Assembly: GCA_028696915.1 (NCBI GenBank)
Contig: JAQVGB010000007.1
Span: forward strand, 1-21,840
DNA: 21,840 nt
Direction of reading: 5' to 3'
Source of the DNA: Candidatus Dojkabacteria bacterium
Lineage (GTDB): Bacteria > Patescibacteriota > Dojkabacteria > SC72 > JAFGCJ01
The notes below the pieces were generated by a model. The model saw nothing but the letters and a program-made list of their open reading frames with translations. It was not told the DNA's origin and made no database searches. Below, piece by piece: positions 3,183-21,033 of the stretch (position 1 is its first letter; each line of letters starts with the position of its first letter). The position numbers were made by a program, and so were the translations under genes.

Positions 3183-3189
3183 GGAATAA

Positions 3190-3219: not shown

Positions 3220-3228
3220 AGCCCTGTT

Positions 3229-3690: not shown

Positions 3691-3705
3691 TCGGGGTCCT
3701 CTCCC

Positions 3706-5175: not shown

Positions 5176-5187
5176 CCCAGCATTCGT

Positions 5188-5940: not shown

Positions 5941-5972
5941 GGTCTACATTCTGCAAGACGTGGTTGATGCCT

Positions 5973-6848: not shown

Positions 6849-6869
6849 CGGTTCTATTGTACCTGATTT

Positions 6870-7658: not shown

Positions 7659-7670
7659 ATTGATGGTGTG

Positions 7671-8282
7671 CTATTCTGAATAATCCGGCCTCGGCACTAG
7701 TTTCATATGAGAAAACGGCCAGTAAATAAATAGTGCCCGGCCTTTTATCTGCTCCTCTTCAATCGGGCCGAAAGACCGTGAATCGGAGCTGTGGTTGCGG
7801 TTGTCTCCCATCACAAAGTATTTACCCTCCGGGACCGAATACACCTGCCCCTCCTTCAAGAACGCTCCGGGATCGGTGTACACACCTGCGTCCAGATACT
7901 CAGACTCGTCAAGGGGTTCTCCATTCACATGCACGGAACCGTCCCTGACCTCGACCGTATCGCCCGGGCCACCGATGACCCGCTTAATGTAGTCGTCGGT
8001 CTCAGTCTGTTTGAAAATGACAACGTCCCCTCGATTTGGTGAATTCAGGTGATAGGAAATCTTGTCGGCAAGCAGATACTCGCCGTTCCAGAAGCTGTCC
8101 TCCATGGAGCGCCCGATAACCTCGTGGGGCGAGGCGACGAACAGATAGACAAAAATAACAATAGCTCCGGCGATCACAAGGGTCTCGACGATGTCATACA
8201 CGCCGCGGACAAAGCGTCGTGCGACTCTTTTGGCTGCGGATTCCTGTTTGATGATTGTCTCGTCCGGTAGCATTCCTTCCAT
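7671..8282 (-). CDS. lepB: Signal peptidase I
   Basis: N-terminal TM segment, catalytic Ser box GRSMEDSF, Lys box YIKRVIGGPGD, and GDNRNHSSDSR. Confidence 0.9.
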   Translation of the reverse strand: MEGMLPDETIIKQESAAKRVARRFVRGVYDIVETLVIAGAIVIFVYLFVASPHEVIGRSMEDSFWNGEYLLADKISYHLNSPNRGDVVIFKQTETDDYIKRVIGGPGDTVEVRDGSVHVNGEPLDESEYLDAGVYTDPGAFLKEGQVYSVPEGKYFVMGDNRNHSSDSRSFGPIEEEQIKGRALFIYWPFSHMKLVPRPDYSE

Positions 8283-8476
8283 GTGATAGTGGCAGATTTA
8301 ACTAAGGTCCAAACGGATACTTCGATTATACGCTCTTGACCGGGCTTTGCCTATACAAGGCGGGCGTGTCCGGATTCTACACTGATCGAACGACAAAAAA
8401 CTCGTCTGGAACGACCCGCGACGTTATTGTTTGTCCGTCGCCCACCTCCCCTGTTTCCCCTATAGGTGGATGGGAT

Positions 8477-8549
8477 TGCCGCTACGGGGAATCGAACCCC
8501 GGTTTACGGGATGAAAACCCGTTGTCCTAGGCCACTAGACGATAGCGGC
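8477..8549 (-). tRNA. tRNA-Glu (anticodon UUC), CCA not encoded
   Basis: The reverse complement folds as a cloverleaf. The acceptor is GCCGCTA/TAGCGGC, the anticodon stem ACGGG/CCCGT with loop TTTTCAT, and the T arm CGGGG-TTCGATT-CCCCG. The D arm is identical in pattern to bacterial tRNA-Glu. Confidence 0.9.
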
Positions 8550-8575
8550 GTACATTTCCACACGATTGTACACGC

Positions 8576-8803
8576 TCATGCCCGTTTTGAAAACTCTTCC
8601 GCTTCGCGGAAAGTGGCGCGGCGGTAGCAGTCTGCGGTCCGGTCATACACAAACATACGTCTGCAGGAGCAGATCACAATTTCTTCTGTACCGTTGAATG
8701 CATGCTTCTGCATTTTATCAAGCGGTGCGGTGCACCCGGGACACAGTCGTTTCGCAAGCAGTACACGCTGGAACGGTGCGATAAGATTTTTAAATGTTTT
8801 CAT
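8576..8803 (-). CDS. Small hypothetical zinc-ribbon protein (75 aa from ATG 8803; TTG at 8818 is possible)
   Basis: Contains CPGC...(20 aa)...CSC, giving four Cys in two knuckles. The ORF lies between tRNA-Leu and tRNA-Glu on the same strand. No recognisable family. Confidence 0.4.
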   Translation of the reverse strand: MKTFKNLIAPFQRVLLAKRLCPGCTAPLDKMQKHAFNGTEEIVICSCRRMFVYDRTADCYRRATFREAEEFSKRA

Positions 8804-8880
8804 GACGTTTCGGTTCAAATGTTCAAGTTATGCTCGTCTTCTTCGTGTTCTTTTCGACGTATTTGTTCTCCAGGTCAGCT

Positions 8881-8909
8881 ATTATATGACAAAATGATGT
8901 CGTTGTGAT
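8881..8909 (-). promoter_or_regulatory. Candidate sigma70 promoter for the zinc-ribbon ORF / tRNA-Glu / lepB-parAB transcription unit
   Basis: On the minus strand: ATCACA (8904-8909), 17 nt spacer, then a perfect TATAAT (8881-8886). Confidence 0.35.
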
Positions 8910-8917
8910 CATCGATG

Positions 8918-9002
8918 TGCCGAGGAGAGGACTCGAACCTCCACAGGATATGCTCCCACATGGTCCTAAGCCATGCGCGTCTGCCAGTTCCGCCACCTCG
9001 GC
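8918..9002 (-). tRNA. tRNA-Leu (anticodon UAG), long variable arm, CCA not encoded
   Basis: Reverse complement GCCGAGGTGGCGGAACTGGCAGACGCGCATGGCTTAGGACCATGTGGGAGCATATCCTGTGGAGGTTCGAGTCCTCTCCTCGGCA. The acceptor is 7 bp, the anticodon loop is CTTAGGA, and the extra arm is class II. Confidence 0.9.
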
Positions 9003-9048
9003 AGGGTAAAATCCTCAAATTTCAGGAGGTGAACGTAATGCAGGAAGA

Positions 9049-10176
9049 TTATATCACCATTTCGCTGTCGTTGATGACCCGTACGACCGTTTTCTTCCGT
9101 TCCAGTTTGGTAACCGGCTGTTCATCTTCGGGCTTGGGAAGCCGGTAGTACGTTGATCGTCCCCCGTGATGTACTGAAACAAGCTTTTTCCGGACAAGTT
9201 CATTGAGGTCACGGTAGGCAGTCATGGTTGAAACACCCGTCATCCCCACATACTCGCGGCGGGAGATCCTGGGGTGATACTGGAGGTGCCGTACGAGCCT
9301 CTGTTGGCGTGGGTTGAGCACGAGCAGCTGTTCTCTTTGCAGGTGAACTTTCTTTTCTGCCGCTCGCACGACATCGTTTTTTAATGAAACCATATCGGAC
9401 GAAATTCCGTTGAGGTAGGTCTCGATCCATCCGGTCACATCCGCAGTTGTCCAGTCGATTGATGACAGCGCGTCAATAAATTGTTCTTTATGATTGAGGA
9501 AACTTCCAGCGACCGGGAAAAGGCCCTTGAGCGAGAGTCGCGAGCGCTCCATGAGCAGTTCCGTAGAAGCAAGCATGGTGATGAAATTGCCGGACATGAA
9601 CGGATACCACCGATACAACTCCGATATGACACAGGCACACTTGATTGCGGGGTGCACCTGATGCCGCTTTTCCCCGAACCAATGGAGCACATCCGTGAAG
9701 TACCGCTGAGGATCTATCGAAAGCCTCGGCAGTTCCCTGTCTTTCAGAAGAGGGTCCGCCGGATCGCTTACGGTGTCCATAATCGACCTGAACCGCCCGC
9801 TTTCCCACGATTCGACGATCGTGTTGAGAAGAAGCTTGTTTAAATGAAGAAGCAGTGATGCTGAGAGCGATAGGTACGGGTCATTGCTTGATGCATACAT
9901 GAAATCACTGGTGCTCCGGTAGTTTGCAAGAATGACTGATTTTGAACCGGGCAGTGGAATATCTCTTCCCGAGGCAAGGTTTGAGGCATCAGGCTGAGAG
10001 AGTGGAATATTCAGCTGTGTGGCAAGCGCTGAAATGTTGCTTGATGCCTGCTGGTGTAGAAGCGATTTTTGCACTTTCGCCGAAAGTGGCGTGCTTCGGA
10101 TATCGTGGATTGCAAGCTCGAGACGGATCAAGTGCGAAACGATTGTGTTCGTCAGAGAGAATGTTGGAACGTACAT
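9049..10176 (-). CDS. Fic/DOC-fold protein with degenerate catalytic motif and a C-terminal winged-HTH
   Basis: At the position of the Fic signature HPFxxGNGRxxR the protein reads YPFMSGNFITML (nt 9571-9606). The C-terminus LNPRQQRLVRHLQYHPRISRREYVGMTGVSTMTAYRDLNELVRKKLV resembles the wHTH found on long Fic proteins. Confidence 0.6.
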   Translation of the reverse strand: MYVPTFSLTNTIVSHLIRLELAIHDIRSTPLSAKVQKSLLHQQASSNISALATQLNIPLSQPDASNLASGRDIPLPGSKSVILANYRSTSDFMYASSNDPYLSLSASLLLHLNKLLLNTIVESWESGRFRSIMDTVSDPADPLLKDRELPRLSIDPQRYFTDVLHWFGEKRHQVHPAIKCACVISELYRWYPFMSGNFITMLASTELLMERSRLSLKGLFPVAGSFLNHKEQFIDALSSIDWTTADVTGWIETYLNGISSDMVSLKNDVVRAAEKKVHLQREQLLVLNPRQQRLVRHLQYHPRISRREYVGMTGVSTMTAYRDLNELVRKKLVSVHHGGRSTYYRLPKPEDEQPVTKLERKKTVVRVINDSEMVI

Positions 10177-10221
10177 TTTTGAGCTCTCAAGTAGAATCTG
10201 GTCCTGGAGCAGTCAGTACTA

Positions 10222-10294
10222 AGCTGGCGGTGAGGATCGAACTCACGACCTACGCTTTACGAAAGCGTCGCTCTACCAACTGAGCTACGCCAGC
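10222..10294 (-). tRNA. tRNA-Thr (anticodon CGU), CCA not encoded
   Basis: Reverse complement GCTGGCGTAGCTCAGTTGGTAGAGCGACGCTTTCGTAAAGCGTAGGTCGTGAGTTCGATCCTCACCGCCAGCT. The anticodon loop is TTCGTAA. Confidence 0.9.
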
Positions 10295-10494
10295 TTTTTG
10301 TGACCACAAGCCTGGTTATAGTTAGGGCATCGTGGTCAAATGAAGGGCCGATTCGTATCGGATTTATATCACAGACGAGATGGCATGTCCACGGGGATAA
10401 GGTAGCAGAACGCCCTCGCAGATGCTTCGCATCTACTCGTTCTTCACGGTCATCCAGTCCAGCGTCCTCTCCTCACGGTGTGAGGAAATGCCGC

Positions 10495-10570
<76 letters not shown>

Positions 10571-10599
10571 ATCGGTCCTGAGGCCAAGAAATCAACTTT

Positions 10600-11430
10600 C
10601 TAAAGGATTTTCTTCTTGTCCAGATTATAATAGATTCCGCCCAGCATCGCACTATGAACGAGAAATCCTGCGGTCTCAACCGTTGGAGAAACGATAGGGC
10701 CACAGCAACACAGCACGACCGTCAATATGCCGAAGAGTACATTAATGACCAGCATGATGACAGCAACCCCAAGAAACTGCGGCCATGCATGCGTGATGAC
10801 CGTCATGATCGTGGACGGTGACATAAGCTTCCCGAGATCCCGATATTTCAGGTACACATACATGAGTGCCGGAATGACCAGGATGGCAACAGCAAACATA
10901 ACCACGCTGAGAATGATCATGAGAAAGACAAACGCGGCGATCAGGAGCGCCGTTATCCATGTGGAATCAATAGAAGACAGCAGAACGATCGGAAGAGCGG
11001 CGGAGATCATGGTGATCAGAACGAGCGGGCCAATCAACAGAAACTGTGCTCCAATGTATACAAGTCCGGTTGTCAACGTTTTTCCTAGGTTTGAATGCTC
11101 CGGAAGGACATCCAGATCATCCTTCTTGACCGCAGAAGTCCTGATTGAGTCAGCGGTCTCCAAAAAGTAGCCTCTGACATACAGCATCACCGGAAGCAAA
11201 ATGAGAGAGCTCAATGTCGGCATAGCGATCGCAAGAAGCGGGAATGCGTCATTGGAGAATCCCCGAGGAAAGGCAAAACTGGAAAACCTGAAGATGTCGG
11301 TGGAGGTTAGTGCCGCATTGATCCCCAGGGAGAAGATTGTATTAAAGAAAAAAATAGCCCAAATAACCCCGGCTTTCGGCAGAAGTCTGCGGTCGTTGAA
11401 GACGCGCGGTATAAAATTGAGAAATTCCAT
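10600..11430 (-). CDS. Hypothetical polytopic integral membrane protein
   Basis: 276 aa with at least six long hydrophobic segments. No catalytic motif is recognisable. The antisense ORFs in the track (10727-11170, 10742-10960) are shadows. Confidence 0.6.
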   Translation of the reverse strand: MEFLNFIPRVFNDRRLLPKAGVIWAIFFFNTIFSLGINAALTSTDIFRFSSFAFPRGFSNDAFPLLAIAMPTLSSLILLPVMLYVRGYFLETADSIRTSAVKKDDLDVLPEHSNLGKTLTTGLVYIGAQFLLIGPLVLITMISAALPIVLLSSIDSTWITALLIAAFVFLMIILSVVMFAVAILVIPALMYVYLKYRDLGKLMSPSTIMTVITHAWPQFLGVAVIMLVINVLFGILTVVLCCCGPIVSPTVETAGFLVHSAMLGGIYYNLDKKKIL

Positions 11431-11437
11431 GGTTTCG

Positions 11438-11446
11438 ATTGTAGCA
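11438..11446 (-). promoter_or_regulatory. Extended -10 element (TGCTACAAT on the minus strand) 7 nt upstream of the membrane-protein ATG
   Basis: The reverse complement of 11431-11446 reads TGCTACAATCGAAACC and is followed by the ATG at 11430. There is no Shine-Dalgarno. Confidence 0.35.
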
Positions 11447-11457
11447 TACTTGTTTGA

Positions 11458-11486
11458 TTGACTGTACCCGGATTATTAGATATAGT
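11458..11486 (+). promoter_or_regulatory. Candidate sigma70 promoter for tRNA-Asp
   Basis: TTGACT (11458-11463), 17 nt spacer, TATAGT (11481-11486), located 53 nt upstream of the tRNA 5' end. Confidence 0.4.
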
Positions 11487-11539
11487 TATGCCGCTAACCT
11501 CTAGTTGAGGCGATCATTAAAACATAATGAAGAATTTGT

Positions 11540-11613
11540 GGGGCGGTAGTTCAGTTGGCTAGAACATCGCACTGTCACTGCGAAGGTCGCGGGTTCGAGC
11601 CCCGTCCGCCCCG
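11540..11613 (+). tRNA. tRNA-Asp (anticodon GUC), CCA not encoded (followed by TAG)
   Basis: 74 nt cloverleaf. The acceptor is GGGGCGG/CCGCCCC with discriminator G, the D arm GTTC-AGTTGGCTA-GAAC, the anticodon arm TCGCA-CTGTCAC-TGCGA, and the T arm GCGGG-TTCGAGC-CCCGT. Confidence 0.92.
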
Positions 11614-11730
11614 TAGGCAATCAAAAATCGTCCGAAAGGGCGATTTTTTGTTGCCTCGCTGGAAGGACGAAGGGCGAGAAGCAAGGTCCCACGAAACGAA
11701 GTGTAGTGGGGAGCCCCGTCCGCCCCGCCA
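11612..11730 (+). repeat. Junction module alpha, copy 1 (119 nt), ending in the 13-mer GTCCGCCCCGCCA (11718-11730)
   Basis: 116/119 identical to 14821-14939. It begins right at the discriminator of tRNA-Asp. The last 20 nt, GAGCCCCGTCCGCCCCGCCA, repeat the tRNA T-loop/acceptor 3' strand and add CCA. Confidence 0.95.
11623..11649 (+). terminator. Intrinsic-terminator-like hairpin downstream of tRNA-Asp
   Basis: AAAAATCGTCC-GAAA-GGGCGATTTTT has an 11 bp stem with one G-U pair, a GNRA-type loop and a T tract. It is nested in an outer inverted repeat AGGCAA (11615-11620) / TTGCCT (11652-11657). Confidence 0.65.
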
Positions 11731-11893
11731 TTTTCAACATGTTCCAACAAGACCCGTCCACTATCTCTAGGAATCCCTTGGTTGCTTCGTAAAATCGCCC
11801 CTAAATTTAAGTATTTCAATTTCACATCCTGGTGGATGAAAATATCCATATTTTAACCAGTTTTTACTTCCCCACGGTTCGAAGATAGAATCC
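11731..11893 (+). repeat. Cassette left arm L, copy 1 (upstream of the ABC gene)
   Basis: Colinear with 13858-14024 in four blocks. The blocks are a 36-nt block TTTTCAACATGTTCCAACAAGACCCGTCCACTATCT (34/36), CCTGGTGGATGAAAA (15/15), CAGTTTTTA (9/9) and CGGTTCGAAGA (11/11). They sit at matching distances from the CCA (97/99 nt and 144/145 nt). Confidence 0.85.
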
Positions 11894-11936
11894 TTTTGTG
11901 ATATACTTTTCAAATAATTACAATAGATATAACGAC

Positions 11937-13715
11937 ATGCTTAAAGAAATAATAAAAGGATTAAAGTACGGACTTAATACACACAAATTCCTTATTACCT
12001 CGCAATGGATTCTTAACACCATTAACCAAACAACACCGCTATTTTTTGCAATCATCTGGGCAAAACTAATAGATACAGCAATAGATGGGATTCAGAATAA
12101 CAACCTCACCTTTTCCTTAATGATAGTTCCCTTCATCCTGTATGGCGTCATAGAAATAGCTAGATCTCTTACAGGGAAATTAGATGATGCATTACAAACA
12201 CTGGCCTATGACAAATTAGAGTTAAAAGTTCATACAGATGTAGTTAAGAAATATTCATCACTTGATATACAAAGCCTAGAAGATCCAGAAGTTAACAGAC
12301 TATTTCAAGTTATAAGGGAGTCATATGAATGGAGAATTAGACATTTAATATTTACATTCGGTAAAGCACTAAGGGCATTTGTAATACTTGGTATTGGTTC
12401 ATTTATACTTTTCAAAATCTCTCCTCTTGTTATGCTCATTATAATTATATCCTCTATACCATCCGTATTAGGAAAAATGAAGTTTGGCTCTATTGATTGG
12501 GGAATATGGCATGCAGATGCAGATAAGTTTAGAAAATTTAACCTAACTAAAGACTTTTTACTTAACAAAGATAATCTTCTGGAGGCAAATATAAACAATA
12601 TATCTCCACATCTCGTTGAAGTAATAAAAGAAATACTGAATTCATATCATCAGAAGAGAAAGCCAGTAATTAAAAAGCGTTTTTTTGTTCTAATTTTAAC
12701 AGACTTAATAGGAATAGTAGGTTCAATATATTCCGTATATCTACTGATTACTCTAGCTTTAACTGGCTCTATCTCAATTGGAAGTTTAATCTTAGGATCA
12801 TCTATCTTCCTTTCATTTTCTGGTGGACTAGGATCTTTCTTGTATGAAATTACAGAATTATATGATTCAGGATTATTCATGAGAGATTTCAACTCTTTTA
12901 TGAATCTTAAGCCTAAAATATCTAAAGGGAATATTCTGTTAGAAAAACTTGATACTCCTCCTACTATAGAGTTTAAGAACGTATCCTTTACATACCCCAA
13001 TACAGACAAAATTGTATTAAAGGATATAGACCTTGTTATTAAACCTGGTATGAAAGTAGCATTAGTAGGTGAAAATGGAGTAGGAAAAACAACCTTAATT
13101 AAACTACTCGCTCGATTCTATACACTGAACAATGGAATGATCGAAATTAATGGTCAAAATCTCGCAGATATTGATACAGAAAGCTGGGAACAGAACTTAG
13201 GTTTACTCACACAACATTTTAATACATACCCTGCATTTAGTGTTGAGGAGAATATATATTTTGGAGATGTATCCAAGGAGAGGAGAAGTAAGAGTATAGA
13301 AAGTGCTGCTGATAAAGCAAATGTTACAAGCTTTATTAACAAATATAAAAACAAATTTAAACAGATTCTTTCTATACAATTTAAGGATGGAATAGATCCA
13401 TCATGGGGACAATGGCAAAGATTAGGAATAGCTAGAACATTATATAGGGATGCACCCGTAGTAATATTTGATGAACCCACATCCTCTATAGATGCTCAAG
13501 CAGAGTATGAGATATTTGAAAACATTAATAGTTCTACTAAAGATAAAACCGTTATATATGTATCACATAGGTATTCTACAGTAAGGAATGCTGACTTAAT
13601 ATGCGTTTTAAAGGATGGAAGAATTGTTGAGTCAGGAAACCATCAAGATTTAATGAGTATTAATGGTGAGTATGCTAAGAACTTTAAATTACAAGCATCG
13701 GGGTATTCAGATTGA
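11937..13715 (+). CDS. ABC exporter, fused permease-ATPase (type I half-transporter) with an atypical signature motif
   Basis: The N-terminal ~330 aa carry about 6 hydrophobic segments. The NBD has Walker A GENGVGKTT, a Q-loop region, Walker B VVIFDEPTSSID and H-loop YVSHR. The signature reads PSWGQWQR instead of LSGGQRQR. ATG 11937 is preferred; the track start at GTG 11898 is possible. The gene is very AT-rich. Confidence 0.85.
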   Translation: MLKEIIKGLKYGLNTHKFLITSQWILNTINQTTPLFFAIIWAKLIDTAIDGIQNNNLTFSLMIVPFILYGVIEIARSLTGKLDDALQTLAYDKLELKVHTDVVKKYSSLDIQSLEDPEVNRLFQVIRESYEWRIRHLIFTFGKALRAFVILGIGSFILFKISPLVMLIIIISSIPSVLGKMKFGSIDWGIWHADADKFRKFNLTKDFLLNKDNLLEANINNISPHLVEVIKEILNSYHQKRKPVIKKRFFVLILTDLIGIVGSIYSVYLLITLALTGSISIGSLILGSSIFLSFSGGLGSFLYEITELYDSGLFMRDFNSFMNLKPKISKGNILLEKLDTPPTIEFKNVSFTYPNTDKIVLKDIDLVIKPGMKVALVGENGVGKTTLIKLLARFYTLNNGMIEINGQNLADIDTESWEQNLGLLTQHFNTYPAFSVEENIYFGDVSKERRSKSIESAADKANVTSFINKYKNKFKQILSIQFKDGIDPSWGQWQRLGIARTLYRDAPVVIFDEPTSSIDAQAEYEIFENINSSTKDKTVIYVSHRYSTVRNADLICVLKDGRIVESGNHQDLMSINGEYAKNFKLQASGYSD

Positions 13716-13759
13716 GATACTTTCCCCTTTTTTATACTGTCTTATTTGTCTCATTTTGT

Positions 13760-13781
13760 GGTCCAGACTCGTATGTCCCGT
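13760..13781 (+). repeat. Degenerate tRNA 3'-end-like cassette right end, copy 1
   Basis: GGTCCAGACTCGTATGTCCCGT matches GGTTCCAGACGTGTATGTCCCGT at 14801-14823. Both align loosely (about 13-15 of 22) to the tRNA-Asp T-loop/acceptor GGTTCGAGCCCCGTCCGCCCCG. Confidence 0.7.
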
Positions 13782-13857
13782 TGTCCACGAATGTAATGAG
13801 TGGTAACAACGGGCGATCCCGCAATCGCGAAGCGAGCTGCGGTGGTCCGCCCCGCCA
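13777..13857 (+). repeat. Junction module beta, copy 1: hairpin, 35-nt conserved body and 13-mer (13845-13857)
   Basis: The hairpin is CCCGTTGT-CCAC...GTGG-ta-ACAACGGG (13777-13813). AACAACGGGCGATCCCGCAATCGCGAAGCGAGCTG (13805-13839) is identical to 20847-20881. The module ends in GTCCGCCCCGCCA. Confidence 0.9.
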
Positions 13858-14024
13858 TTTTCAATATGTTCCAACAAGACCCGTGCACTATCTTTTAAAA
13901 CCCTTATGGGAATTGAGTTATTAAGACTCTAAAAAGTGAAAGTTTTAAAAGTAAGGCCTGGTGGATGAAAAAGATCAAAAAAAAGCAGTTTTTAAGAGCT
14001 CTCGGTTCGAAGAAAAACTAATCC
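13858..14024 (+). repeat. Cassette left arm L, copy 2 (here abutting the 3' end of the minus-strand S51 peptidase gene)
   Basis: See 11731-11893: the same four colinear blocks at the same spacing from the CCA. Confidence 0.85.
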
Positions 14025-14059
14025 TATATACACAAACAAAAAATCATTACGGATAAGTA

Positions 14060-14701
14060 TTACCTCAATTTTGTTTCACTTATAATAACTTCCCCATCTC
14101 TTAAAGGCTTATAAGGTATGCCTTCATGCTTAAAGTACTTTATCGCCTCATTAATCATTTCTGATTCAGGATGATCAGAGTCAAAATGTGGTGCTATTGA
14201 ATAATCTATTAAACCAATTCCCTCCCAAACAATCTCTTTTCCATAGACTTCGGTTACTTTCTCTGGTTCGTCAGCTAATTCAATACCCTTTAAAGAAGGT
14301 GCTAATACACATGCTCCTGCAGAAAAACCTGCGTAAAGGAATTCTGTTTTATCACTCCTGTTTTTATATTCAATTAAAATCTTGTCGAGACCACTTTCTG
14401 CCATTGCACTACGAAGTAAAAAAGCATTTCCACCAATAACCCATAAACCTCCAAATTCGTCCAATTTTGATCTTAATCCTTCCATATCCCCAAAGTAATC
14501 TCTTAGATCTAAGAGCTCCGGTTCAAATCCAAGATCTTTTAATCCATCAATTTGTTTCTGTTCAGAAGCCAATCTTCTTTCGGTGTCATTACTAAAATCT
14601 AGAGCATTAGCTATTAGTGCAATTCTTTTATTTGAAGAAGCTAACTGAGCCAATTTATTAGGATCATCTCCAAATTTGTATGAAGACAAATATAATTTCA
14701 T
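14060..14701 (-). CDS. Peptidase family S51 (dipeptidase E-like)
   Basis: VIGGNAFLL (compare GGGNTF), nucleophile elbow YAGFSAGACV (compare GWSAGA) and IAPHFDSD (compare NPHF). Length is 213 aa. A strong Shine-Dalgarno AGGAGA lies 6 nt before the ATG. Confidence 0.8.
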   Translation of the reverse strand: MKLYLSSYKFGDDPNKLAQLASSNKRIALIANALDFSNDTERRLASEQKQIDGLKDLGFEPELLDLRDYFGDMEGLRSKLDEFGGLWVIGGNAFLLRSAMAESGLDKILIEYKNRSDKTEFLYAGFSAGACVLAPSLKGIELADEPEKVTEVYGKEIVWEGIGLIDYSIAPHFDSDHPESEMINEAIKYFKHEGIPYKPLRDGEVIISETKLR

Positions 14702-14800
14702 AAGAATTCTCCTATTTAAATTACTAACTTTATCTTACTAAAAAATTCTCGAGAAAACCATGTAAATCCATCCTACCTAATTCATACCTTTTCCACTCTT

Positions 14801-14823
14801 GGTTCCAGACGTGTATGTCCCGT
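14801..14823 (+). repeat. Degenerate tRNA 3'-end-like cassette right end, copy 2
   Basis: GGTTCCAGACGTGTATGTCCCGT runs directly into alpha copy 2, exactly as the genuine tRNA-Asp 3' end runs into alpha copy 1. Confidence 0.7.
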
Positions 14824-14939
14824 AGGCAATCAAAAATCGTCCGAAAGGGCGATTTTTTGTTGCCTCGCTGGAAGGACGAAGGGCGAGAAGCACGGTCCCA
14901 CGAAACGAAGTGTAGTGGAAAGCCCCGTCCGCCCCGCCA
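14821..14939 (+). repeat. Junction module alpha, copy 2 (119 nt), ending in the 13-mer (14927-14939)
   Basis: 116/119 identical to 11612-11730. The three differences are A/C at 14893 and GG/AA at 14919-14920. Confidence 0.95.
14832..14858 (+). terminator. Second copy of the terminator-like hairpin
   Basis: Identical to 11623-11649 (AAAAATCGTCCGAAAGGGCGATTTTT plus T tract). Confidence 0.55.
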
Positions 14940-15233
14940 GACGGAACGGTGCTTATAGGTAAACAGTAAATAATGTCAGGACAATGAAAGTTGGCACCTC
15001 CTCAGTTCGAACCTCACACTATGGGCAAATAAGGCGTCCGGAACAGATTTCATAGGATAATCCATTTTCCTTATTATTAAAGCAAAAGTAGGGGTAATTA
15101 TGCGTTCGAACCTAACAATCTAAAAATATGAAAAAATGTAGGTTGCATGTGATAACCAAGAATATCAAGAGAACCTGGATGTATTTGCTAAAACTTTGAA
15201 CATAATTGCGGTGAATATTGCGAAATTGAGCCC

Positions 15234-16433
15234 TTAGATGGGCTCTGCAACCGTTTCTTCCAGTACACGTTCGAGATCTTTTGTCTGAGCCTCTATTGAT
15301 TTACTTGCCCAGTCTCGTTCCTGATACATTTTGAGCCCCATCCATGGTTTACCAAGTTCGTCAAGGCAGAGTGCAAGTAGTGCCAGTCGTTCTTCTCGAG
15401 GTGTAGGGGTACTTAATCTTCCTCCCCCACGAATTGCCTTCATTTGATATGTATACGCTGTGTAATCAATATGTAATTGCATAAGAAACTCAAACGTTTT
15501 TTCGTCAATAATTTTATATTCCATCGCTCTTCTCCATAACGCGACAGAGATAGCTTCCTGTTCCATTTGATGACTAGTGACATTATAAAGACCCTGAATT
15601 TCACGAGTTTTATCTAAAAACTCTGAATCTGGTTCAATATCAAATGGATATAACGGTATCCCTTTTTGATCAATACCGTACAATACGTTTCTATGTTGTT
15701 TTTCCAGTTGCGCTATTGTTTCTTTGTATTGGGTTTCTCTTTTTTGAAAATCAGTATCTGACTCACCTAGCTTTCTTACTGGTTCTTTTGGGCGATTGAC
15801 ATCAAGATATCGGTCCCAGAGTTTCCCTGCATCGTGGGTGCCAGCCCAAACAATAAAAGCGCGGCGCTCTTCTTCGGAAATATGCAAAGATTCAAACAAG
15901 TGCCGAGAAAACCGGAATATATTACGACGCACTGCCAGCATGTCCAGTTCTGATTGGGTTAATTGTTCCCATCCGCTTTGATCCAGAATTCTTGAAATAG
16001 TCTCTGATAAGTCGTCCACTGTCGCAACGTATGCCTCACTGTGTCCTTCAATGGGTTGAAAGTAGTGGTATGCTGATGGCGGTATTTCATTTCCAGAAAG
16101 AGCTTGAAAAACAGAAAGAAGTGCTCGCATATGGTCTGTCACATCGTATCCATGAAATGGACACACCTGATCAACCAGTAATCCTCCATCTGGCCTTTTT
16201 CTAAGAGAAACCGTAGATGTAACTAATGCACGACGATCGTCTGTTGCTTCAGATCCAACAAGATCAGGATTAGTTTCAATTAGATTAGTAGCATCTACAG
16301 CAAGTCTCGACCAGACAGTTGGTTGATCAAGCTGCCCCATAAGATACCCAATTCCATCACATATCGACTGAGTGCGCGCTTCAATCGCTTGGTTCATAAT
16401 TTCATTACCTTCACCATCTGGAGCATTTGCCAT
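15234..16433 (-). CDS. HD-domain metal-dependent phosphohydrolase-like protein (399 aa from ATG 16433)
   Basis: FSRHLFESLHISEEERRAFIVWAGTHDAGK (nt 15822-15902) fits the HD-domain pattern H...(~20 aa)...LHDxGK. The rest of the protein is unassignable by eye. The internal Met (MANAPDG) is preferred as start because it removes the overlap with the divergent kinase gene. Confidence 0.5.
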   Translation of the reverse strand: MANAPDGEGNEIMNQAIEARTQSICDGIGYLMGQLDQPTVWSRLAVDATNLIETNPDLVGSEATDDRRALVTSTVSLRKRPDGGLLVDQVCPFHGYDVTDHMRALLSVFQALSGNEIPPSAYHYFQPIEGHSEAYVATVDDLSETISRILDQSGWEQLTQSELDMLAVRRNIFRFSRHLFESLHISEEERRAFIVWAGTHDAGKLWDRYLDVNRPKEPVRKLGESDTDFQKRETQYKETIAQLEKQHRNVLYGIDQKGIPLYPFDIEPDSEFLDKTREIQGLYNVTSHQMEQEAISVALWRRAMEYKIIDEKTFEFLMQLHIDYTAYTYQMKAIRGGGRLSTPTPREERLALLALCLDELGKPWMGLKMYQERDWASKSIEAQTKDLERVLEETVAEPI

Positions 16434-16446
16434 ATGAGACAATTTC

Positions 16447-16474
16447 TTGTAAAAACTGTGATACCTGCTATTAT
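16447..16474 (+). promoter_or_regulatory. Candidate promoter in the 74-nt divergent intergenic region, oriented toward the kinase gene
   Basis: TTGTAA (16447-16452), 16 nt spacer, TATTAT (16469-16474). Confidence 0.3.
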
Positions 16475-16507
16475 AGTAATCACATAAGTAAAAAACAAGC
16501 ATGTATT

Positions 16508-17458
16508 ATGAATAATCTTTCCTTTGGTGATGTCGTCCAGAAGCTCCAGGAGGATTACGCGGATCTTCAGAAATACGACCTAACGGTACAAAAGCAATTT
16601 GTTTCAAAAACAGGACGTAAGTACAATACTTTTCTTGTTGATGCACCTGATTCCCCATATGGTATATTTGTAGCCAAAAGCTTTTGGCATGAGAACCAGA
16701 ACCTTGATGATGAAGTTCGCATTATGAATTTTCTCTCTGATAAAGAGGTATTTGTGCCAAAGCTGTTGTTTCCATACAAAGCAGGGAATACGTTTATTGT
16801 GATGGAATATATCAAAGGAACTGATGCTGCGGAATTGCTTCAAAATCCAGAACATGCACTAAATGCATTTAGAAGTATTGGTACATCCTTGAGTAAAGTA
16901 TATGAAGTGTCTGTCCCGGCTTTTAACAAATTCTGGGAAAACGATCCAACAGTATGGTCAGAGTATGTTCAGGAAAAGTTTGATGAACGGTTAACAAAAG
17001 CCATTGATAAAGATCTTTGGGATCAAATTCGGTCGATTTATCAAAAAGGTACAGAAGTTATAGCGGAAGATGCAAAGTCTGGATCAGTTTTGATACACAG
17101 AGATATTTATGCTGACAACTTTATTATTGAAGAGTCGACCGGGCGGGCAATTTTAATTGACTTCGCTATGGCTCGCGGAGGCAGGCCCTTTTATGATCTT
17201 GCCAAGTTTTACATCATCGATCTAGCGAGACATTCTGAAGGTCAAAATGCTTTTCTGGAGGGACTGAATATTGCTGAAAGAAGTGAAGCAAACTTTTATA
17301 TGCTCCGATCCTATATCCTCATTGAGCTCCTTGGCATGATTAACTTTTATATGAGTATTAATCAAACTGAGCCCTTAAAACACGCACAAACATGTCTGAG
17401 AGAATTAGTAACAGAAAAGGGAAGTTTCCATGAGTTAGTGAAAGCATATGTAACGTAA
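16508..17458 (+). CDS. APH/choline-kinase-family small-molecule kinase (aminoglycoside phosphotransferase fold)
   Basis: Catalytic loop LIHRDIYADNFII (HxDxxxxN), metal-binding ILIDFAMA (the DFG equivalent), and an N-lobe with VAKSF containing a Lys. ATG 16508 (MNNLSFGD) is preferred over the track's TTG at 16427. Confidence 0.75.
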   Translation: MNNLSFGDVVQKLQEDYADLQKYDLTVQKQFVSKTGRKYNTFLVDAPDSPYGIFVAKSFWHENQNLDDEVRIMNFLSDKEVFVPKLLFPYKAGNTFIVMEYIKGTDAAELLQNPEHALNAFRSIGTSLSKVYEVSVPAFNKFWENDPTVWSEYVQEKFDERLTKAIDKDLWDQIRSIYQKGTEVIAEDAKSGSVLIHRDIYADNFIIEESTGRAILIDFAMARGGRPFYDLAKFYIIDLARHSEGQNAFLEGLNIAERSEANFYMLRSYILIELLGMINFYMSINQTEPLKHAQTCLRELVTEKGSFHELVKAYVT

Positions 17459-17566
17459 ACTAACCTTGTCTTATAAAGGATATTTATATCCGGACCTCAA
17501 ACGACAACTCCGGTACCTGCACTTTAATTCTCGCATCCCGCATCACCTCCATTAGAGTTTTGTTCT

Positions 17567-17579
17567 GTCCGCCCCGCCA
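17567..17579 (+). repeat. Solo copy of the tRNA-Asp 3'-terminus 13-mer GTCCGCCCCGCCA
   Basis: Exact 13/13 match in the same orientation, located in the 165-nt gap between the kinase gene and ORF374. It has no alpha or beta body upstream. Confidence 0.9.
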
Positions 17580-17623
17580 GCCTCTTTTCGGTCATCTGTT
17601 AAAAGCCAACAAACATTGATATA

Positions 17624-18748
17624 TTGATAGAGTTAAATTCGGCTTTGCAGTTGATGTCTGGAGAATCACCAGTGCATGATGATGTACTAGCCCCCGCTGG
17701 TGTTGCGGATGTAGCAGATCCGTTACCCCAAGATCCCGATTTTCAGCGTCTTCATGCACAGTATCTAGAGTATCTACAAAACGAGCCTGTTACCAAGGTA
17801 AAGCTTCCGCTATACCACGGAACTGGCTCATATGCACTGAGACGGATCTTGCATGATGGATTTGTCCCACGCTCTTCCAGTGCGTCATTGACGGGAGATA
17901 GTGCTTCAAGCCCCTGGACACCGGAAGAGGGATCCGCGTTCACGTCATTTGCACCGGGTACTTCTGAAGGAGCCGTCTTTGCACGGGGGTATGCATACCA
18001 ATCAAGTAGAGAGTGGGGATTAAGCTACACGGCAGATGAAGCTCTAGGTGCTTCGTTTCTTGAGCGAGTGCAAACCAAATTCTTTCCAGATATGAATGCG
18101 GCAGTGGAAGCTGAGCACAAGCGTGTTATTGGCCTAGGTAACAATGATCCTGAAGATGAAGTTCGTGAGGCTATTAAAATGGAGATGGACATTCAGAGGG
18201 AGCGGATGCAAACCCCTGGAGCTTTCGTATTCAGTCCCGATTCTGCTCGAGAGATGATAGGTGAATTACAGAGGCTTCAAAATGGAGAGATTGAAGATAC
18301 TGTTGCTGCAGAGAGACTGTTAAGGGCAAACAACGTCCTCTGGCGACGAGGGGCTAGCGTTGTTAGACAGACCTTGCAAACGCTATCTGATCCGCAGAGT
18401 TGGCTTACAAAACGAATAGAGGAACTTAAGGCTTCATATGCCCAGATGATTATAGCGTATGAGAATTTGTCAGATGATGAACGAAATGAGCTGGAACACC
18501 AATTTCCCTGCATGGTCTTGGTAGAAGGTGATGGTATGAAGCTCGGGAATAAGGCAACGGCCTTTGTCCCCGAAGTTCAGGCGCTAGAAAGAACCGAACC
18601 GCAGAGGGTAAGAGAGATTTCGGTGCCAGAGTCAAAAGTGGAAACGGTACAGAAGTGGATCGAGGCTGAAGGACTAAAAGGTGTTATAGTTACCCCTCTG
18701 GAGTTTTCAGAAGTTAAGGATGTTCTTGATTCTGTCGAAAAGGAATAG
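17624..18748 (+). CDS. Hypothetical protein with a PARP/ADP-ribosyltransferase-like N-terminal NAD-binding motif (tentative)
   Basis: LPLYHGTGSYALRRILHDGFVP (nt 17804-17869) resembles the ART/PARP/Tpt1 motif hhHG(S/T)x7-8ILxxG(F/L). A possible second-strand motif is EGAVFARGYAYQSS (compare GxGxYFA..S.S). The central region is helical and charged. The start is TTG 17624 or ATG 17654. Confidence 0.35.
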   Translation: MIELNSALQLMSGESPVHDDVLAPAGVADVADPLPQDPDFQRLHAQYLEYLQNEPVTKVKLPLYHGTGSYALRRILHDGFVPRSSSASLTGDSASSPWTPEEGSAFTSFAPGTSEGAVFARGYAYQSSREWGLSYTADEALGASFLERVQTKFFPDMNAAVEAEHKRVIGLGNNDPEDEVREAIKMEMDIQRERMQTPGAFVFSPDSAREMIGELQRLQNGEIEDTVAAERLLRANNVLWRRGASVVRQTLQTLSDPQSWLTKRIEELKASYAQMIIAYENLSDDERNELEHQFPCMVLVEGDGMKLGNKATAFVPEVQALERTEPQRVREISVPESKVETVQKWIEAEGLKGVIVTPLEFSEVKDVLDSVEKE

Positions 18749-18804
18749 AGGTCGATGAAGGTTTGAGTAGCCATAGATCTCCAAACTCGTCCCATGCCTT
18801 CCGC

Positions 18805-18822
18805 CAGCAGCGCTTTCTGCTG
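18805..18822 (+). other. Perfect 6-bp hairpin downstream of ORF374
   Basis: CAGCAG-cgcttt-CTGCTG has no T tract. It immediately follows a degenerate 13-mer-like string, GTCCCATGCCTTCCGCCAG (18789-18807). Confidence 0.35.
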
Positions 18823-18848
18823 ACTCCTCCATACGCTATACTTGCTTC

Positions 18849-19295
18849 ATGTATCAGATTCCGGAGGACAAGGGATTCCTCATAGCAGTAAAAGCACTAA
18901 TAATCAACTCGTCAGGTGAAGTTCTTCTCCTTAAAGTGAATAGTGGCCTGCGTGATTCAGAGAGATGGGATCTACCCGGCGGTTTAATGGAATATGACGA
19001 TACGGTTGAGAGCAGATTACAGAAAGAAGTGATTGAGGAAACCGGCATTAAAATCAAAGATCCGAAGCTAATTGCTGTTTCTGAAACGATATTTGAAGAT
19101 TTCGTTCTTGACGAAAATAACGTAAAAGACATGAAAGTTGTAGTTATTGGTTTTGAATTGCATATAGGCGCAACAAAGGAGACTATCAGATTATCAGAGG
19201 AACATGCAGGTTATGCTTGGTATAGAATGGAAGATTTGAATACCATTGAGCTCTCCAAACCTTCCAAGGCAATCATCACAAAGATTCCTAAGTAA
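18849..19295 (+). CDS. Nudix hydrolase
   Basis: Nudix box G-LMEYD-D-TVESRLQ-KEVIEETGI (nt 18978-19049) fits Gx5Ex7REUxEExGU with conservative E-to-D and R-to-K changes. Length is 148 aa. TATACT lies 6 nt before the ATG. Confidence 0.8.
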   Translation: MYQIPEDKGFLIAVKALIINSSGEVLLLKVNSGLRDSERWDLPGGLMEYDDTVESRLQKEVIEETGIKIKDPKLIAVSETIFEDFVLDENNVKDMKVVVIGFELHIGATKETIRLSEEHAGYAWYRMEDLNTIELSKPSKAIITKIPK

Positions 19296-19301
19296 CATCG
19301 T

Positions 19302-19329
19302 CTCGGTTCGATACTGTGCCACGCGGCCA
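19302..19329 (+). other. Fragment resembling a different tRNA 3' end (T-loop to CCA)
   Basis: CTCGG-TTCGATA-CTGTG-CCACGCG-G-CCA has exactly the T-loop-to-CCA spacing of a tRNA. It is followed by GTAGGCAA, the same octamer that follows the tRNA-Asp 3' end. There is no 5' half, and the T stem pairs at only 4 of 5 positions. Confidence 0.5.
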
Positions 19330-19331
19330 GT

Positions 19332-19359
19332 AGGCAAAAGCACGCAGCTTTTGTATCCT
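19332..19359 (+). other. Hairpin analogous to the alpha-module hairpin
   Basis: AGG-CAAAAGC-acgca-GCTTTTG-tat-CCT then CG. It has the same flanks (GTAGGCAA...TTTTGT..CCTCG) as 11613-11659 but a different stem and loop sequence. Confidence 0.5.
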
Positions 19360-19381
19360 CGAGCAATGTGAAGTCAATATC

Positions 19382-20710
19382 TCATAGGTTAACCGTCACG
19401 TCATCCGGTTCAATATCTCCACACATTGCCAAATACCAGGAATTGCTTCCAAAATACTTTTGCGCAGCCCGTTGTGTCGCCTCTGGAGTACAACGTAATA
19501 TAGCCTCTGAGTATGCTTTAATTCCGAAGGGGCCTCCTACACCTCTTTCCCAGTCTGAGTATTGTTCAACCCAACTCCTGGAATCTTGAAGGCGCATTCT
19601 TAATGATTTAATCTTCCTCGTCTGCCCGAATACTAACTCTTCTTGCGAAAGGCCACTGGTAACGACGCGTCTGATTTCTCCGGCAAGAACATCAAGCACC
19701 TCCTGCACATTTTGCCTTGAAGTCGAAGTTTTAATAAGAAATCGCCCTGAGTCGCTATTTCTTTGAGCACCAGCACTTGCCTCATAGGTCAGTCCTCTTT
19801 CATATCTTAGTAAGCGTTTTAACGAAGATGCCCTTCCTCCTCCGAGCGATTCTGCAATCATTTCTAACGCCAGGTTGTCTGCCTCGCTACTAGTTTGAAA
19901 TCTAAATCCGAAAAGAATATGAACTTGTTCAAGACCAGGATATCTTTCCACAAGAATCTGCCCTCCGATAGGTAGAGGCAATTCTTCGGCGGCTTTCAGA
20001 GGAACGCTTGCTGGGACCAATAAACTCTGCTCTGCGTGATCTTTTAGATCGTGAACCTGTGTTCCACCGCAGGCTACAAATAACAGTCGCCCAGATGTTA
20101 CGACTTCTTTGTAGAAACGAATCAAGTCATCTCTTGAAATTGACCTAATTGATTCCGGGGTTCCAAGAATCGATCTTCCAAGATCTGTCCCTCCAAAGAA
20201 AAGCCGTGGATACAACTCCATGAGCATTTTTTCTGGACTTGATACTTTTGCTCCGAGTTCTCGTAAAATTGCCCCTCTTTCCATCTCCACTGTTCGAGGA
20301 TCAAACAGTGGATCGAGTAACATTTCGTGCATCAAGTCGACACATACTCCAAGATCGTCAGGATCCGCTACCGTGGAATTGATACTCAACCGTTCCCACC
20401 CGGTTGTTGCGCCAATTTCTCCTCCATAGCGTTCAATGTATGCAGCTAGTCTGTCTTTAGTAGGAAAACGAGGTGTTCCCGCGAGGAGCATGTGCTCAAG
20501 AAAATGTGCTGTTCCTTCTTGTCCCGGTGGATCAAAACGTGCCCCACCAATGGAAACAGCGCGAAGATGAATAGGTGCCCGAGGTCGCTCCAAAACAACC
20601 AGTTTTGAACCATTTGATAGGAACGTTTCCTCCCGTCTCGTTCCCAGGTCTTCAGCAGATAAAGAATTGTGGGTCGGATCGGTATCAACCTCATTGGGTT
20701 TGTCAATCAT
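19382..20710 (-). CDS. M16-family (pitrilysin/insulinase-like) zinc metallopeptidase
   Basis: Inverted zincin motif GTAHFLEHMLL (HxxEH) near the N-terminus, a downstream Glu region (ERGAILRE), and a two-domain length of 442 aa. Confidence 0.85.
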   Translation of the reverse strand: MIDKPNEVDTDPTHNSLSAEDLGTRREETFLSNGSKLVVLERPRAPIHLRAVSIGGARFDPPGQEGTAHFLEHMLLAGTPRFPTKDRLAAYIERYGGEIGATTGWERLSINSTVADPDDLGVCVDLMHEMLLDPLFDPRTVEMERGAILRELGAKVSSPEKMLMELYPRLFFGGTDLGRSILGTPESIRSISRDDLIRFYKEVVTSGRLLFVACGGTQVHDLKDHAEQSLLVPASVPLKAAEELPLPIGGQILVERYPGLEQVHILFGFRFQTSSEADNLALEMIAESLGGGRASSLKRLLRYERGLTYEASAGAQRNSDSGRFLIKTSTSRQNVQEVLDVLAGEIRRVVTSGLSQEELVFGQTRKIKSLRMRLQDSRSWVEQYSDWERGVGGPFGIKAYSEAILRCTPEATQRAAQKYFGSNSWYLAMCGDIEPDDVTVNL

Positions 20711-20717
20711 AAGAATA

Positions 20718-20746
20718 AGTATATGTTAGGTCCTGATTTTTGTCAT
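20718..20746 (-). promoter_or_regulatory. Candidate promoter abutting the M16 start codon
   Basis: On the minus strand: ATGACA (20741-20746), 17 nt spacer, TATACT (20718-20723), then 7 nt to the ATG at 20710. No Shine-Dalgarno. Confidence 0.4.
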
Positions 20747-20818
20747 CCGGCACAGAGAGTTGTACCACTCTCAATCTGAACTTAAATGAAATCACCATAG
20801 CACCAAACTCTTCCCACC

Positions 20819-20898
20819 CCCGTTGTCTGTGGCCAAAGCGATCAGCAACAACGGGCGATCCCGCAATCGCGAAGCGAGCTGAGCGGTCCGCCCCGCCA
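20819..20898 (+). repeat. Junction module beta, copy 2: hairpin, 35-nt body and 13-mer (20886-20898); distal boundary of the island
   Basis: The hairpin is CCCGTTGT-CTG...CAG-ca-ACAACGGG (20819-20855). Its outer 8 bp are the same as copy 1, and its inner pairs differ but still pair. The body 20847-20881 is 35/35 identical to 13805-13839. The module ends in GTCCGCCCCGCCA. Confidence 0.9.
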
Positions 20899-21033
20899 CA
20901 TTTGAATTCATAAATGAAACTATTCAACATCCCATTGCACAATGATGAAGGTAATCTAGTAAGTTGAGATCCCAAATCCATGCCCCGCCTCCCGGCTACA
21001 TGATCTCTCCGCTTTCCTGTACAATCATGCCCT

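Follow-up and report, generated by a model that had tools for sequence, protein, structure and literature searches.

Alpha and beta junction modules as probable mobile tRNA-Asp trailers in an integron-like cassette array of Candidatus Dojkabacteria

Integrons, genomic islands that target tRNA genes, and the intrinsic terminators that follow tRNA genes are the described systems closest to the locus analysed here, which belongs to Candidatus Dojkabacteria (WS6; Candidate Phyla Radiation, abbreviated CPR, also called Patescibacteria). The window, i.e., the whole stretch of DNA analysed, is 21,840 nt long and comprises positions 1 to 21,840 of contig JAQVGB010000007.1 (assembly GCA_028696915.1). 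Positions 11539-20898 of the window comprise an integron-like array whose mobile units have the 3' end of a tRNA-Asp(GTC) gene as their anchor. Two kinds of gene-less hairpin modules, named alpha and beta, lie among its gene cassettes, and they are likely to be mobile copies of the trailer/terminator of tRNA-Asp within this tRNA-anchored array. An earlier interpretation made without database searches (the sequence-only reading) had placed four modules at the cassette boundaries, all of which are present, and had suggested either a recombination site comparable to attC or a small tRNA-like RNA. The mechanism by which the hairpins are best explained is an ordinary one, and the surrounding cassette system is the more interesting result.

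Integrons are ordered arrays of short, mostly one-gene units with extremely diverse cargo, gene-less cassettes, identical cassettes in distant hosts, and a repeated boundary element at which crossover takes place at one fixed position. All of these features recur here. A metagenome scan for the cassette right-end core returned at least 120 contigs; among the matches listed, the distinct complete units numbered 62, with 1049 nt as their median length and two gene-less members (66 nt and 255 nt), and 563 open reading frames (ORFs) formed 337 protein clusters. Moreover, two contigs with an identical TsaD protein (L208 and L203; L-numbers label the related contigs or loci compared with the window) have different first cassettes, and the cassette after alpha in L001 differs from that in the window. 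However, no IntI-type tyrosine recombinase was detected beside the array or in about 0.55 Mb of related loci (Pfam; phmmer with IntI1 and XerD), the upstream genes being housekeeping genes by NCBIfam. The boundaries are also of a different kind. Integron attC sites are imperfect palindromes with RYYYAAC and GTTRRRY cores and a G/TT crossover, whereas the junctions here are direct-repeat mimics of a tRNA 3' end (...CCCG/CCA; junction consensus GGTTCCAGACGTGTATGTCCCG/CCA), with the sole conserved long-range helix located in the cassette left end. In addition, the anchor is a tRNA gene and not attI, and the cassette genes occur in both orientations.

Integration at a tRNA gene, flanking partial tRNA copies, tandem accretion and cargo-only units without a recombinase are shared with tRNA-targeting islands. 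Comparable tandem elements of this type arise by the accretion of cis-mobilizable elements (CIMEs) next to integrative and conjugative elements (ICEs). In the tycheposons of Prochlorococcus, successive integrations push older elements further away, and tycheposons, which are rare per genome, have integrases and replication modules of their own as defining features (bioRxiv 10.1101/2020.12.28.424599). The present units are likewise inserted at a tRNA 3' end and flanked by direct repeats of part of the tRNA. On the other hand, no element-encoded integrase was detected beside an att site in the window or the related loci, up to seven copies of the tRNA-end junction occur in 13.7 kb (L059), the units are far smaller and share conserved left and right ends, and the join falls at the discriminator/CCA boundary, not within a longer segment of identity. 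With IS200/IS605 elements, the only likeness is joining 3' of a fixed tetranucleotide; neither a segment resembling their transposase (Y1 HUH TnpA) nor consistent subterminal hairpins were found in the window and related loci.

A literature search found no paper in which integron-like systems or cassette arrays are described for Dojkabacteria or CPR. The modules are a variant of known things, and a tRNA-anchored, integrase-unlinked cassette system in CPR bacteria appears to be undescribed. We tentatively suggest that Dojkabacteria, and perhaps other Patescibacteria, might possess a gene-cassette capture system of this undescribed kind, in which the sites would be mimics of the tRNA-Asp 3' end, crossover would occur at the discriminator/CCA boundary, and the recombinase would be unlinked and possibly of a new type. 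Alpha and beta would then be "portable trailer" units which terminate transcription of tRNA-Asp and re-create an insertion site beyond the terminator, insulating the essential tRNA from cassette traffic. Genomes of CPR/Patescibacteria are tiny, and a dedicated hotspot at tRNA-Asp, seen on at least 120 metagenome contigs, would be a main route of accessory-gene flux in this lineage; among the genes carried are those for surface proteins, peptidases, NUDIX proteins and kinases, and there is even a T-box/tRNA-Tyr/TyrRS unit. Integron-like logic built from tRNA-end mimics without a linked integrase would offer a concrete place to seek a new recombinase, and the system would provide a natural example of a terminator doubling as a secondary attachment site. 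In practical terms, the hairpins are best treated as tRNA trailer/terminator modules and not as the recombination site.

The cassette array at tRNA-Asp and its joins

The tRNA-Asp(GTC) gene (11539-11613, plus strand; ARAGORN, with 69.9 bits for the Rfam tRNA family) ends at the discriminator base G73; CCA is not encoded and the next base is T. This gene anchors the array and is likely to act as the equivalent of attB or attI. A 13-mer, GTCCGCCCCGCCA, which comprises the end of the T-stem, the 3' strand of the acceptor stem, G73 and the CCA of this tRNA, has five exact copies in the window (at 11718, 13845, 14927, 17567 and 20886, forming the successive junctions J1 to J5), compared with about 0.22 expected, and none of 100 shuffles reached five. 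Four of these junctions had been recognised in the sequence-only reading, but the copy at 17567 (J4), which has no hairpin module in front of it, had been missed. The GC content is about 51% in positions 1-11600, which code for bacterial housekeeping genes (IleRS, RodA, L27, RlmB, ParAB and LepB by NCBIfam) and a tRNA cluster, and 30-46% from tRNA-Asp to the last 13-mer. The RodA, ABC transporter and M16 proteins of the window are recorded under the name Candidatus Dojkabacteria. The arrangement is not an assembly artefact, because independent Logan contigs reproduce J1 (L001 and L002), most of the first cassette without its junctions (L069), and J3 through J4 (L070, 100%), with an overall identity of 99-100%.

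At its 3' end, every unit of the array copies or mimics the final ~10-25 nt of tRNA-Asp and finishes in CCCG, the G of which corresponds to G73, and all nine joins in the window fall exactly after this CCCG. In order, with the first letters of the right-hand unit indicated, these are tRNA/T-alpha, alpha/CCA-C1, C1/T-beta, beta/CCA-C2, C2/T-alpha, alpha/CCA-C3, C3/CCA-C4, C4/T-beta and beta/CCA. The gene cassettes (C1 to C4) start with CCA, and the gene-less alpha (114 nt) and beta (74 nt) start with T. The initial CCA of a cassette supplies the preceding tRNA, or tRNA mimic, with an encoded CCA. In L158, tRNA-Asp ends in ...GTCCACCCCG, directly followed by the T-starting TTTTTACTATTCCCC..., whereas in L088, L149 and L203 the sequence beginning with TTTTTACTATTCCCC instead follows the GTATGTCCCG of a cassette, and the tRNA there runs into CCA and the cassette. 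The join is therefore located exactly after the discriminator base of CCCG, with CCA travelling with the left end of the cassette. The common denominator of all joins is a tRNA-Asp 3'-end-like sequence ending in CCCG, and it is this precision that suggests site-specific recombination by an unlinked recombinase.

All units of the array are given here on the plus strand. The first alpha copy, as judged from sequence and folding, occupies 11614-11727, and its join with the tRNA also occurs in the independent contigs L001 and L002. Cassette C1 (11728-13780) consists of CCA with a conserved left end of ~170 nt, an ABC transporter gene (11937-13715, plus strand), and a type-1 right end finishing in ...TTTTTATACTGTCTTATTTGTCTCATTTTGTGGTCCAGACTCGTATGTCCCG. 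It is followed by the first beta copy (13781-13854; sequence, folding and covariation) and by cassette C2 (13855-14822), in which the initial CCA and left end precede a gene for peptidase S51 (14060-14701, minus strand) and the final GGTTCCAGACGTGTATGTCCCG. The second alpha copy (14823-14936; sequence and folding), 100% identical in L070, precedes cassette C3 (14937-17576) with genes for a 422-aa unknown protein (15234-16502, minus strand) and an APH-family kinase (16508-17458, plus strand). The left end of C3 is degenerate, and its right end has the 13-mer core and no hairpin module. Cassette C4 (17577-20822) carries genes for an unknown protein (17654-18748, plus strand), a NUDIX protein (18849-19295, plus strand) and an M16 peptidase (19382-20710, minus strand), and ends in ...CCCACCCCCG. 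The second beta copy (20823-20895) is followed by CCA and sequence of ~50% GC (20896-21840), which is host flank or a further unit and contains no further tRNA-end copy. Both conserved ends are borne by C1 and C2, and degenerate versions of them by C3 and C4.

The modules and the trailer of tRNA-Asp

The beta module was found in its native position in a relative represented by two JGI contigs (L194 and L195; 47.6% GC), in which the genes follow each other as in the window (IleRS-RodA-...-LepB-tRNAs-Fic-DUF4013-tRNA-Asp) and RodA has 56% identity. There, beta lies directly 3' of tRNA-Asp, as ...GTCCGCCCCG/TTGTCTACGAGCAAAGCGAGTAGCAACAACGGGCAACCCCGCACATCCGGAGGATGGCGGCGGTCCGCCCCG/TTTTTTT, and its segments after GTCCGCCCCG are TTGTCTAC...ACAACGGGCAACCCCGC...GCGGCGGTCCGCCCCG, before TTTTTTT. 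It is homologous to the second beta copy of the window (78% identity over 79 nt, compared with 64-70% for the flanking protein genes). Its predicted fold consists of hairpin 1 and of hairpin 2, which is long and GC-rich and has U7 directly behind it (z -3.9); this is the form of a canonical intrinsic terminator. Because beta directly follows tRNA-Asp in a syntenic relative and ends in T7, its structure is explained as that of a tRNA trailer/terminator. As a tRNA trailer/terminator, beta is structured and conserved, and it bears the tRNA end a second time. In the further RodA relatives (L192, L193 and L196-L202), tRNA-Asp was not reached within 10 kb, partly owing to a GatCAB insertion.

In the first beta copy of the window, hairpin 1 (CCCGTTGT-CCAC...GTGG-ACAACGGG; 13777-13813) uses the CCCG of the preceding unit, and hairpin 2 (13811-13852) has the inner TCGC-GAA-GCGA at 13825-13835 and the tRNA-end copy GTCCGCCC as its 3' strand. 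The 35-nt body is identical in the two window copies (35/35), just as had been counted before. Covariation was evident among the three beta copies: 97.9% of the cells were paired in the 16 proposed pairs, and five pairs were altered on both sides with pairing kept, compared with 0-1 in slid controls. Two of the double changes occurred in the inner part of hairpin 1 (CCAC/GTGG, CTG/CAG and CTAC/GTAG) and the other three in hairpin 2, within its inner helix (TCGC/GCGA versus ATCC/GGAT).

By analogy with beta, alpha is probably the same kind of unit. It is situated directly 3' of tRNA-Asp in the window, L001 and L002. Its hairpin of 18 bp (11615-11656) has the core AAAAATCGTCC-GAAA-GGGCGATTTTTT, in which a 7-bp GC-rich stem, a GAAA loop and U6 can be read from the sequence; it has the make-up of an intrinsic terminator and looks like a bidirectional one. 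The 3' strand of the second alpha stem is a 19-nt copy of the tRNA 3' end (AGCCCCGTCCGCCCCG). The two alpha copies differ at three positions (11684 and 11710-11711), which gives 118/121 identical when counted from CCCGT or 113/116 from AGGCAA, close to the 116/119 stated earlier. The sequence-only reading had further described the differences between copies as preserving pairing, and this holds for beta, with its five double-changed pairs in three copies, but not for alpha, in which the changes are uncompensated. Similarly, the folding that had been proposed as a check exceeded that of shuffled sequences for alpha (z -3.8 and -4.0) and for beta at J2 (z -3.5), but not for beta at J5.

Beta of L194/L195 resembles other intrinsic terminators in having a GC-rich stem-loop and U7 right after a tRNA without encoded CCA, and the alpha core is shaped like a bidirectional terminator. 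Unlike these, the module exactly duplicates 10-11 nt of the tRNA's own 3' end in the 3' strand of its terminator stem, the trailer as a whole has a recombination core on either side and is present in several copies per array, and the window beta copies have lost the U-run to an inserted cassette.

The possible history of the modules could be as follows. Alpha and beta would be versions of the native 3' trailer of the tRNA-Asp gene, in which a hairpin comes straight after the tRNA and is followed by a GC-rich stem with a duplicate of the tRNA 3' end as its 3' strand. When no cassette is present, a T-run after the second stem would make it an intrinsic terminator, and the second CCCG core would leave the trailer bounded by two crossover points, with a secondary insertion site beyond the terminator. 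The trailer could then be excised and re-inserted like a cassette, alone or with neighbouring cassettes. Insertion of a cassette at the tRNA core would push the trailer distally, giving C2/alpha and C4/beta, and insertion at the trailer's own distal core would spare the tRNA and the terminator, giving alpha/C1, alpha/C3, beta/C2 and the different cassette of L001. Moreover, excision between the tRNA core and a downstream core would generate circles with trailer and cassettes, and their re-insertion could lead to several trailers per array. Such mobility of the trailers is proposed as the reason why two alphas and two betas are interleaved with cassettes. A T-starting PNP unit inside the array of L203 is a case analogous to the relocated trailers. 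In these positions the modules would function both as terminators and as secondary insertion sites.

Several observations count against this history and against the trailer interpretation on which it is built. No recombinase was identified, and the argument for site-specific recombination is the precision of the joins. Both window beta copies have lost the T-run; in a terminator scan, beta at J2 was weakly flagged (13841-13856) and beta at J5 had no U-run. Beta at J5 folds no better than shuffles (z -1.1 to -1.2), and the beta covariation comes from three sequences. Alpha is represented by two near-identical copies and by L001/L002, with no divergent copies, and its structure and trailer origin are probable by analogy with beta and by its position after the tRNA in three independent contigs; a GG to AA two-base difference between its copies weakens the predicted stem and is uncompensated. 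The modules also fold about equally well on both DNA strands, so that an RNA role and a single-stranded-DNA role are inseparable by computation. Finally, the order of events yielding four trailer units in one array is a reconstruction, and it is uncertain where the array ends on the right and whether the right end of C4 is that of a cassette.

Cassettes without modules, the recombinase and the alternatives

The S51 peptidase protein of C2 occurs with identical sequence on 18 metagenome contigs from anaerobic digesters or sludge, ten of which were examined (L059-L068; 32-33% GC). The 972-nt C2, from 13851 (CCCGCCATTTTCAAT; CCCGCCA) to 14822 (GTATGTCCCG), has about 98% DNA identity (97-99%) to these contigs, which contain no 13-mer and no module; the next cassette there abuts C2 directly, as ...GTATGTCCCG/CCATTTTCAA..., with no module in between. 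The sharing of C2 between genomes of 51% and 32-33% GC points to recent transfer across very different GC backgrounds. Among the matches listed in the right-end scan, 116 low-GC loci with about 190 junctions (cores) included none with such a module. Cassette recombination does not require the modules.

Recombinases of the tyrosine and serine types, and transposases of the IS200/IS605 type, were not detected in the window or the related loci. In Pfam searches, the proteins of the window's array cassettes, the DUF4013 protein and the Fic-DeoR gene upstream gave no integrase domain, and 148 cargo-cluster representatives gave no recombinase. Five seeds (XerD, IntI1, resolvase, IS608 TnpA and a phage integrase) were compared by phmmer with 5324 six-frame segments and detected the positive controls only (L006, L026 and L005); the control integrases were found with the same seeds. 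The recombinase would thus be unlinked to the array or of an unrecognised type.

Folded attC-like sites, which a recombinase would read as single-stranded DNA hairpins and would need for cutting at the flanking CCCG, are an improbable explanation of the modules, although several of their properties fit it. The modules lie exactly at the recombination boundaries of mobile cassettes, and to this extent the earlier suggestion was right. Both crossover points of each module are at the base of predicted hairpins, CCCG/TTGT being inside beta hairpin 1 and hairpin 2 having the right core as its 3' strand; compensatory changes accompany the conservation of the structure; joining at a single fixed position with no shared sequence to the right fits single-strand-type mechanisms; and no conventional integrase is linked. 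However, this explanation is disfavoured mainly because cassettes recombine without modules, in the 116 low-GC loci with their ~190 cores and in C2 at 98% identity, and because J4 (17567) has the core but no hairpin. Moreover, the native context of beta as a trailer ending in T7 explains the structure on its own, and equal folding of the two strands means that there is no strand asymmetry.

The joins could also have been produced without any dedicated system, by homologous or illegitimate recombination after DNA uptake, with the cassette ends and tRNA-end copies serving as portable homology and the modules being passive duplicated scars. In favour of this, the left ends of ~170 nt and right ends of ~55 nt could be homology arms, no recombinase was found near any array, and the duplicate alpha and beta copies could come from unequal crossing-over. 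We consider it quite improbable, however. The homology of C2 to its relatives runs from CCCGCCA, its exact left limit, to CCCG, its exact right limit, the alpha and beta sequences next to it bear no relation to the flanks in the donor, and the same breakpoint recurs at all nine window joins and in L158 versus L088, L149 and L203. The shared sequence available at the window joins is 4-7 nt only, and the breakpoints are therefore better explained by site-specific than by homologous recombination.

The remaining proposal, that the modules encode a small tRNA-like or minihelix RNA with a CCA 3' end, e.g., a substrate or decoy for tRNA-processing or aminoacylation enzymes, draws on the pairing of GGGCG with CGCCC of the tRNA-end copy in the predicted beta folds (leaving a ...CG CCA tail in the window copies) and on the stronger conservation of beta than of the neighbouring protein genes, but it is very unlikely, as ARAGORN finds only five genuine tRNAs in the window and Rfam at E<=1 nothing at the modules, the CCA belongs to the left end of the next cassette and is replaced by TTTTTTT after the module in the relative, GGGCGAT lies sequestered within the first hairpin of alpha, the motifs shared by alpha and beta are at chance level, and no separate promoter is evident. 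Two such motifs had been put forward earlier. The common GGGCGAT does not exceed chance, with 583 of 2000 shuffles sharing some 7-mer, and the stretch matching at 13 of 18 positions is no better, with 621 of 2000 shuffles reaching the local alignment score. A relatedness of alpha and beta was accordingly rejected, their similarity outside the 13-mer being at chance level. An explanation of the duplicated tRNA end as an archaeal-type intron or a split tRNA was also dropped; the organism is bacterial (RodA, LepB and ParAB) and the duplication recurs as array junctions.

Conserved cassette ends, cargo and minor observations

Most cassettes have a conserved left end of ~170 nt, and there are conserved right ends of ~55 nt. 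The left end starts with CCA and has the conserved blocks AGACCCGTCCACTAT, CCTGGTGGATGAAAA, GTTTTTA and GGTTCGAAG. In an alignment of 28 copies (including window positions 11728-11900 and 13855-14027), AGACC.GT, CCTGGTGGATGAAAA, GTTTTTA and GGTTCGAAG were invariant. RNAalifold predicted one conserved 8-bp long-range helix (CGTCCACTA with TGGTGGATG) with conserved G·U pairs around a variable region of ~70 nt, located ~25 nt from the crossover; one compensatory pair was found, i.e., essentially no covariation. This left end might bind protein as an arm-type region, fold into a site or act as an RNA. The type-1 right end reads ...TTTTTATACTGTCTyyTTTGTCTCATTyTAGGTTCCAGACGTGTATGTCCCG, in which the final 25 nt copy those of tRNA-Asp in degenerate form.

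About 100 of the contigs listed in the right-end scan have 29-39% GC. Among the matches listed, tRNA-Asp lies upstream on the same strand in 10 loci, and mostly its CCA runs straight into the conserved left end. TsaD adjoins tRNA-Asp in low-GC array contigs and is 67% identical to a protein named "candidate division WS6". L059 has seven junctions in 13.7 kb. One recurring unit (L059:12086-12487, minus strand; also in L060, L061, L094, L098, L134 and L178) combines a T-box leader (Rfam, 103 bits), tRNA-Tyr(GTA) and a TyrRS-like gene, and is a complete self-regulated aminoacylation module travelling as a cassette. The commonest cargo family (L172:1421-3232 and 16 other ORFs, in 14 loci) encodes proteins of ~500-600 aa in which a Ser/Gly-rich linker lies between an N-terminal membrane anchor and a Cys-rich C-terminus, with no Pfam match; judging from this composition, it is probably a secreted Cys-rich surface protein and not an enzyme.

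In the window, a Fic-like protein with a DeoR-type helix-turn-helix (HTH) is encoded between tRNA-Leu and tRNA-Thr (9049-10176, minus strand). A similar Fic/HTH gene occupies the same place in the relatives L194 and L199 and also occurs as cargo in low-GC arrays (L159). For the DUF4013 neighbour, the homologue search returned only itself. A 139-aa ORF (20703-21122, minus strand) spans the second beta copy and the last 13-mer; it has no family match or exact gene on record and is probably spurious. In L194, degenerate left-end blocks (GGTGGATGGAA ... CGGTTCCTCCGAAC) occur after beta at 20233-20460, followed by a gene resembling class-II aminoacyl-tRNA synthetases (PF00152), and this "empty" locus may hold an old cassette.

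Searches for further sites were carried out with the pattern CGAARCGA..13-mer. In GTDB species genomes, there were 52 matches, mostly of high GC and none module-like by blastn; a stricter module pattern gave no match in JGI metagenomes; and Rfam at E<=1 reported tRNAs only for the window. In IMG/VR, one of the two matches was a chance coding match and the other was L006. The lineage of the window is therefore rare or absent in those collections. L006 (positions 5498-6806; IMG/VR UViG_3300048592_000391) is a viral contig of ~50% GC with the 13-mer flanked by a xis-like HTH ORF and an ORF for a tyrosine integrase. The site is probably the attP of a phage targeting a tRNA-Asp with the same acceptor stem. 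This case demonstrates that a conventional attP core can be formed by this tRNA end, but the contig itself is no Dojkabacteria cassette.

Other forms of the right end were also observed. A type-2 family of ~110 nt (AGACCTGTYYCACCTAGGRAACGRTGYTCGRACCTT...TTGATAATATTT...GGTTCGAGTCCCGTCCATCCCG) ends in a perfect, not degenerate, tRNA-Asp 3' end, and was located in L076 (~620-745), L077, L117, L128 (two copies), L131, L159, L164 and L191. In contigs of 41-58% GC (L072:~1-60, L115:~1090-1200, L186:~1350-1460 and L105:~100-212), the right end keeps a T-arm-like hairpin, CGGG-TTCCAGA-CCCG, after the palindrome CCCTCGAGGG, and the right ends therefore look like decayed tRNA 3' halves.

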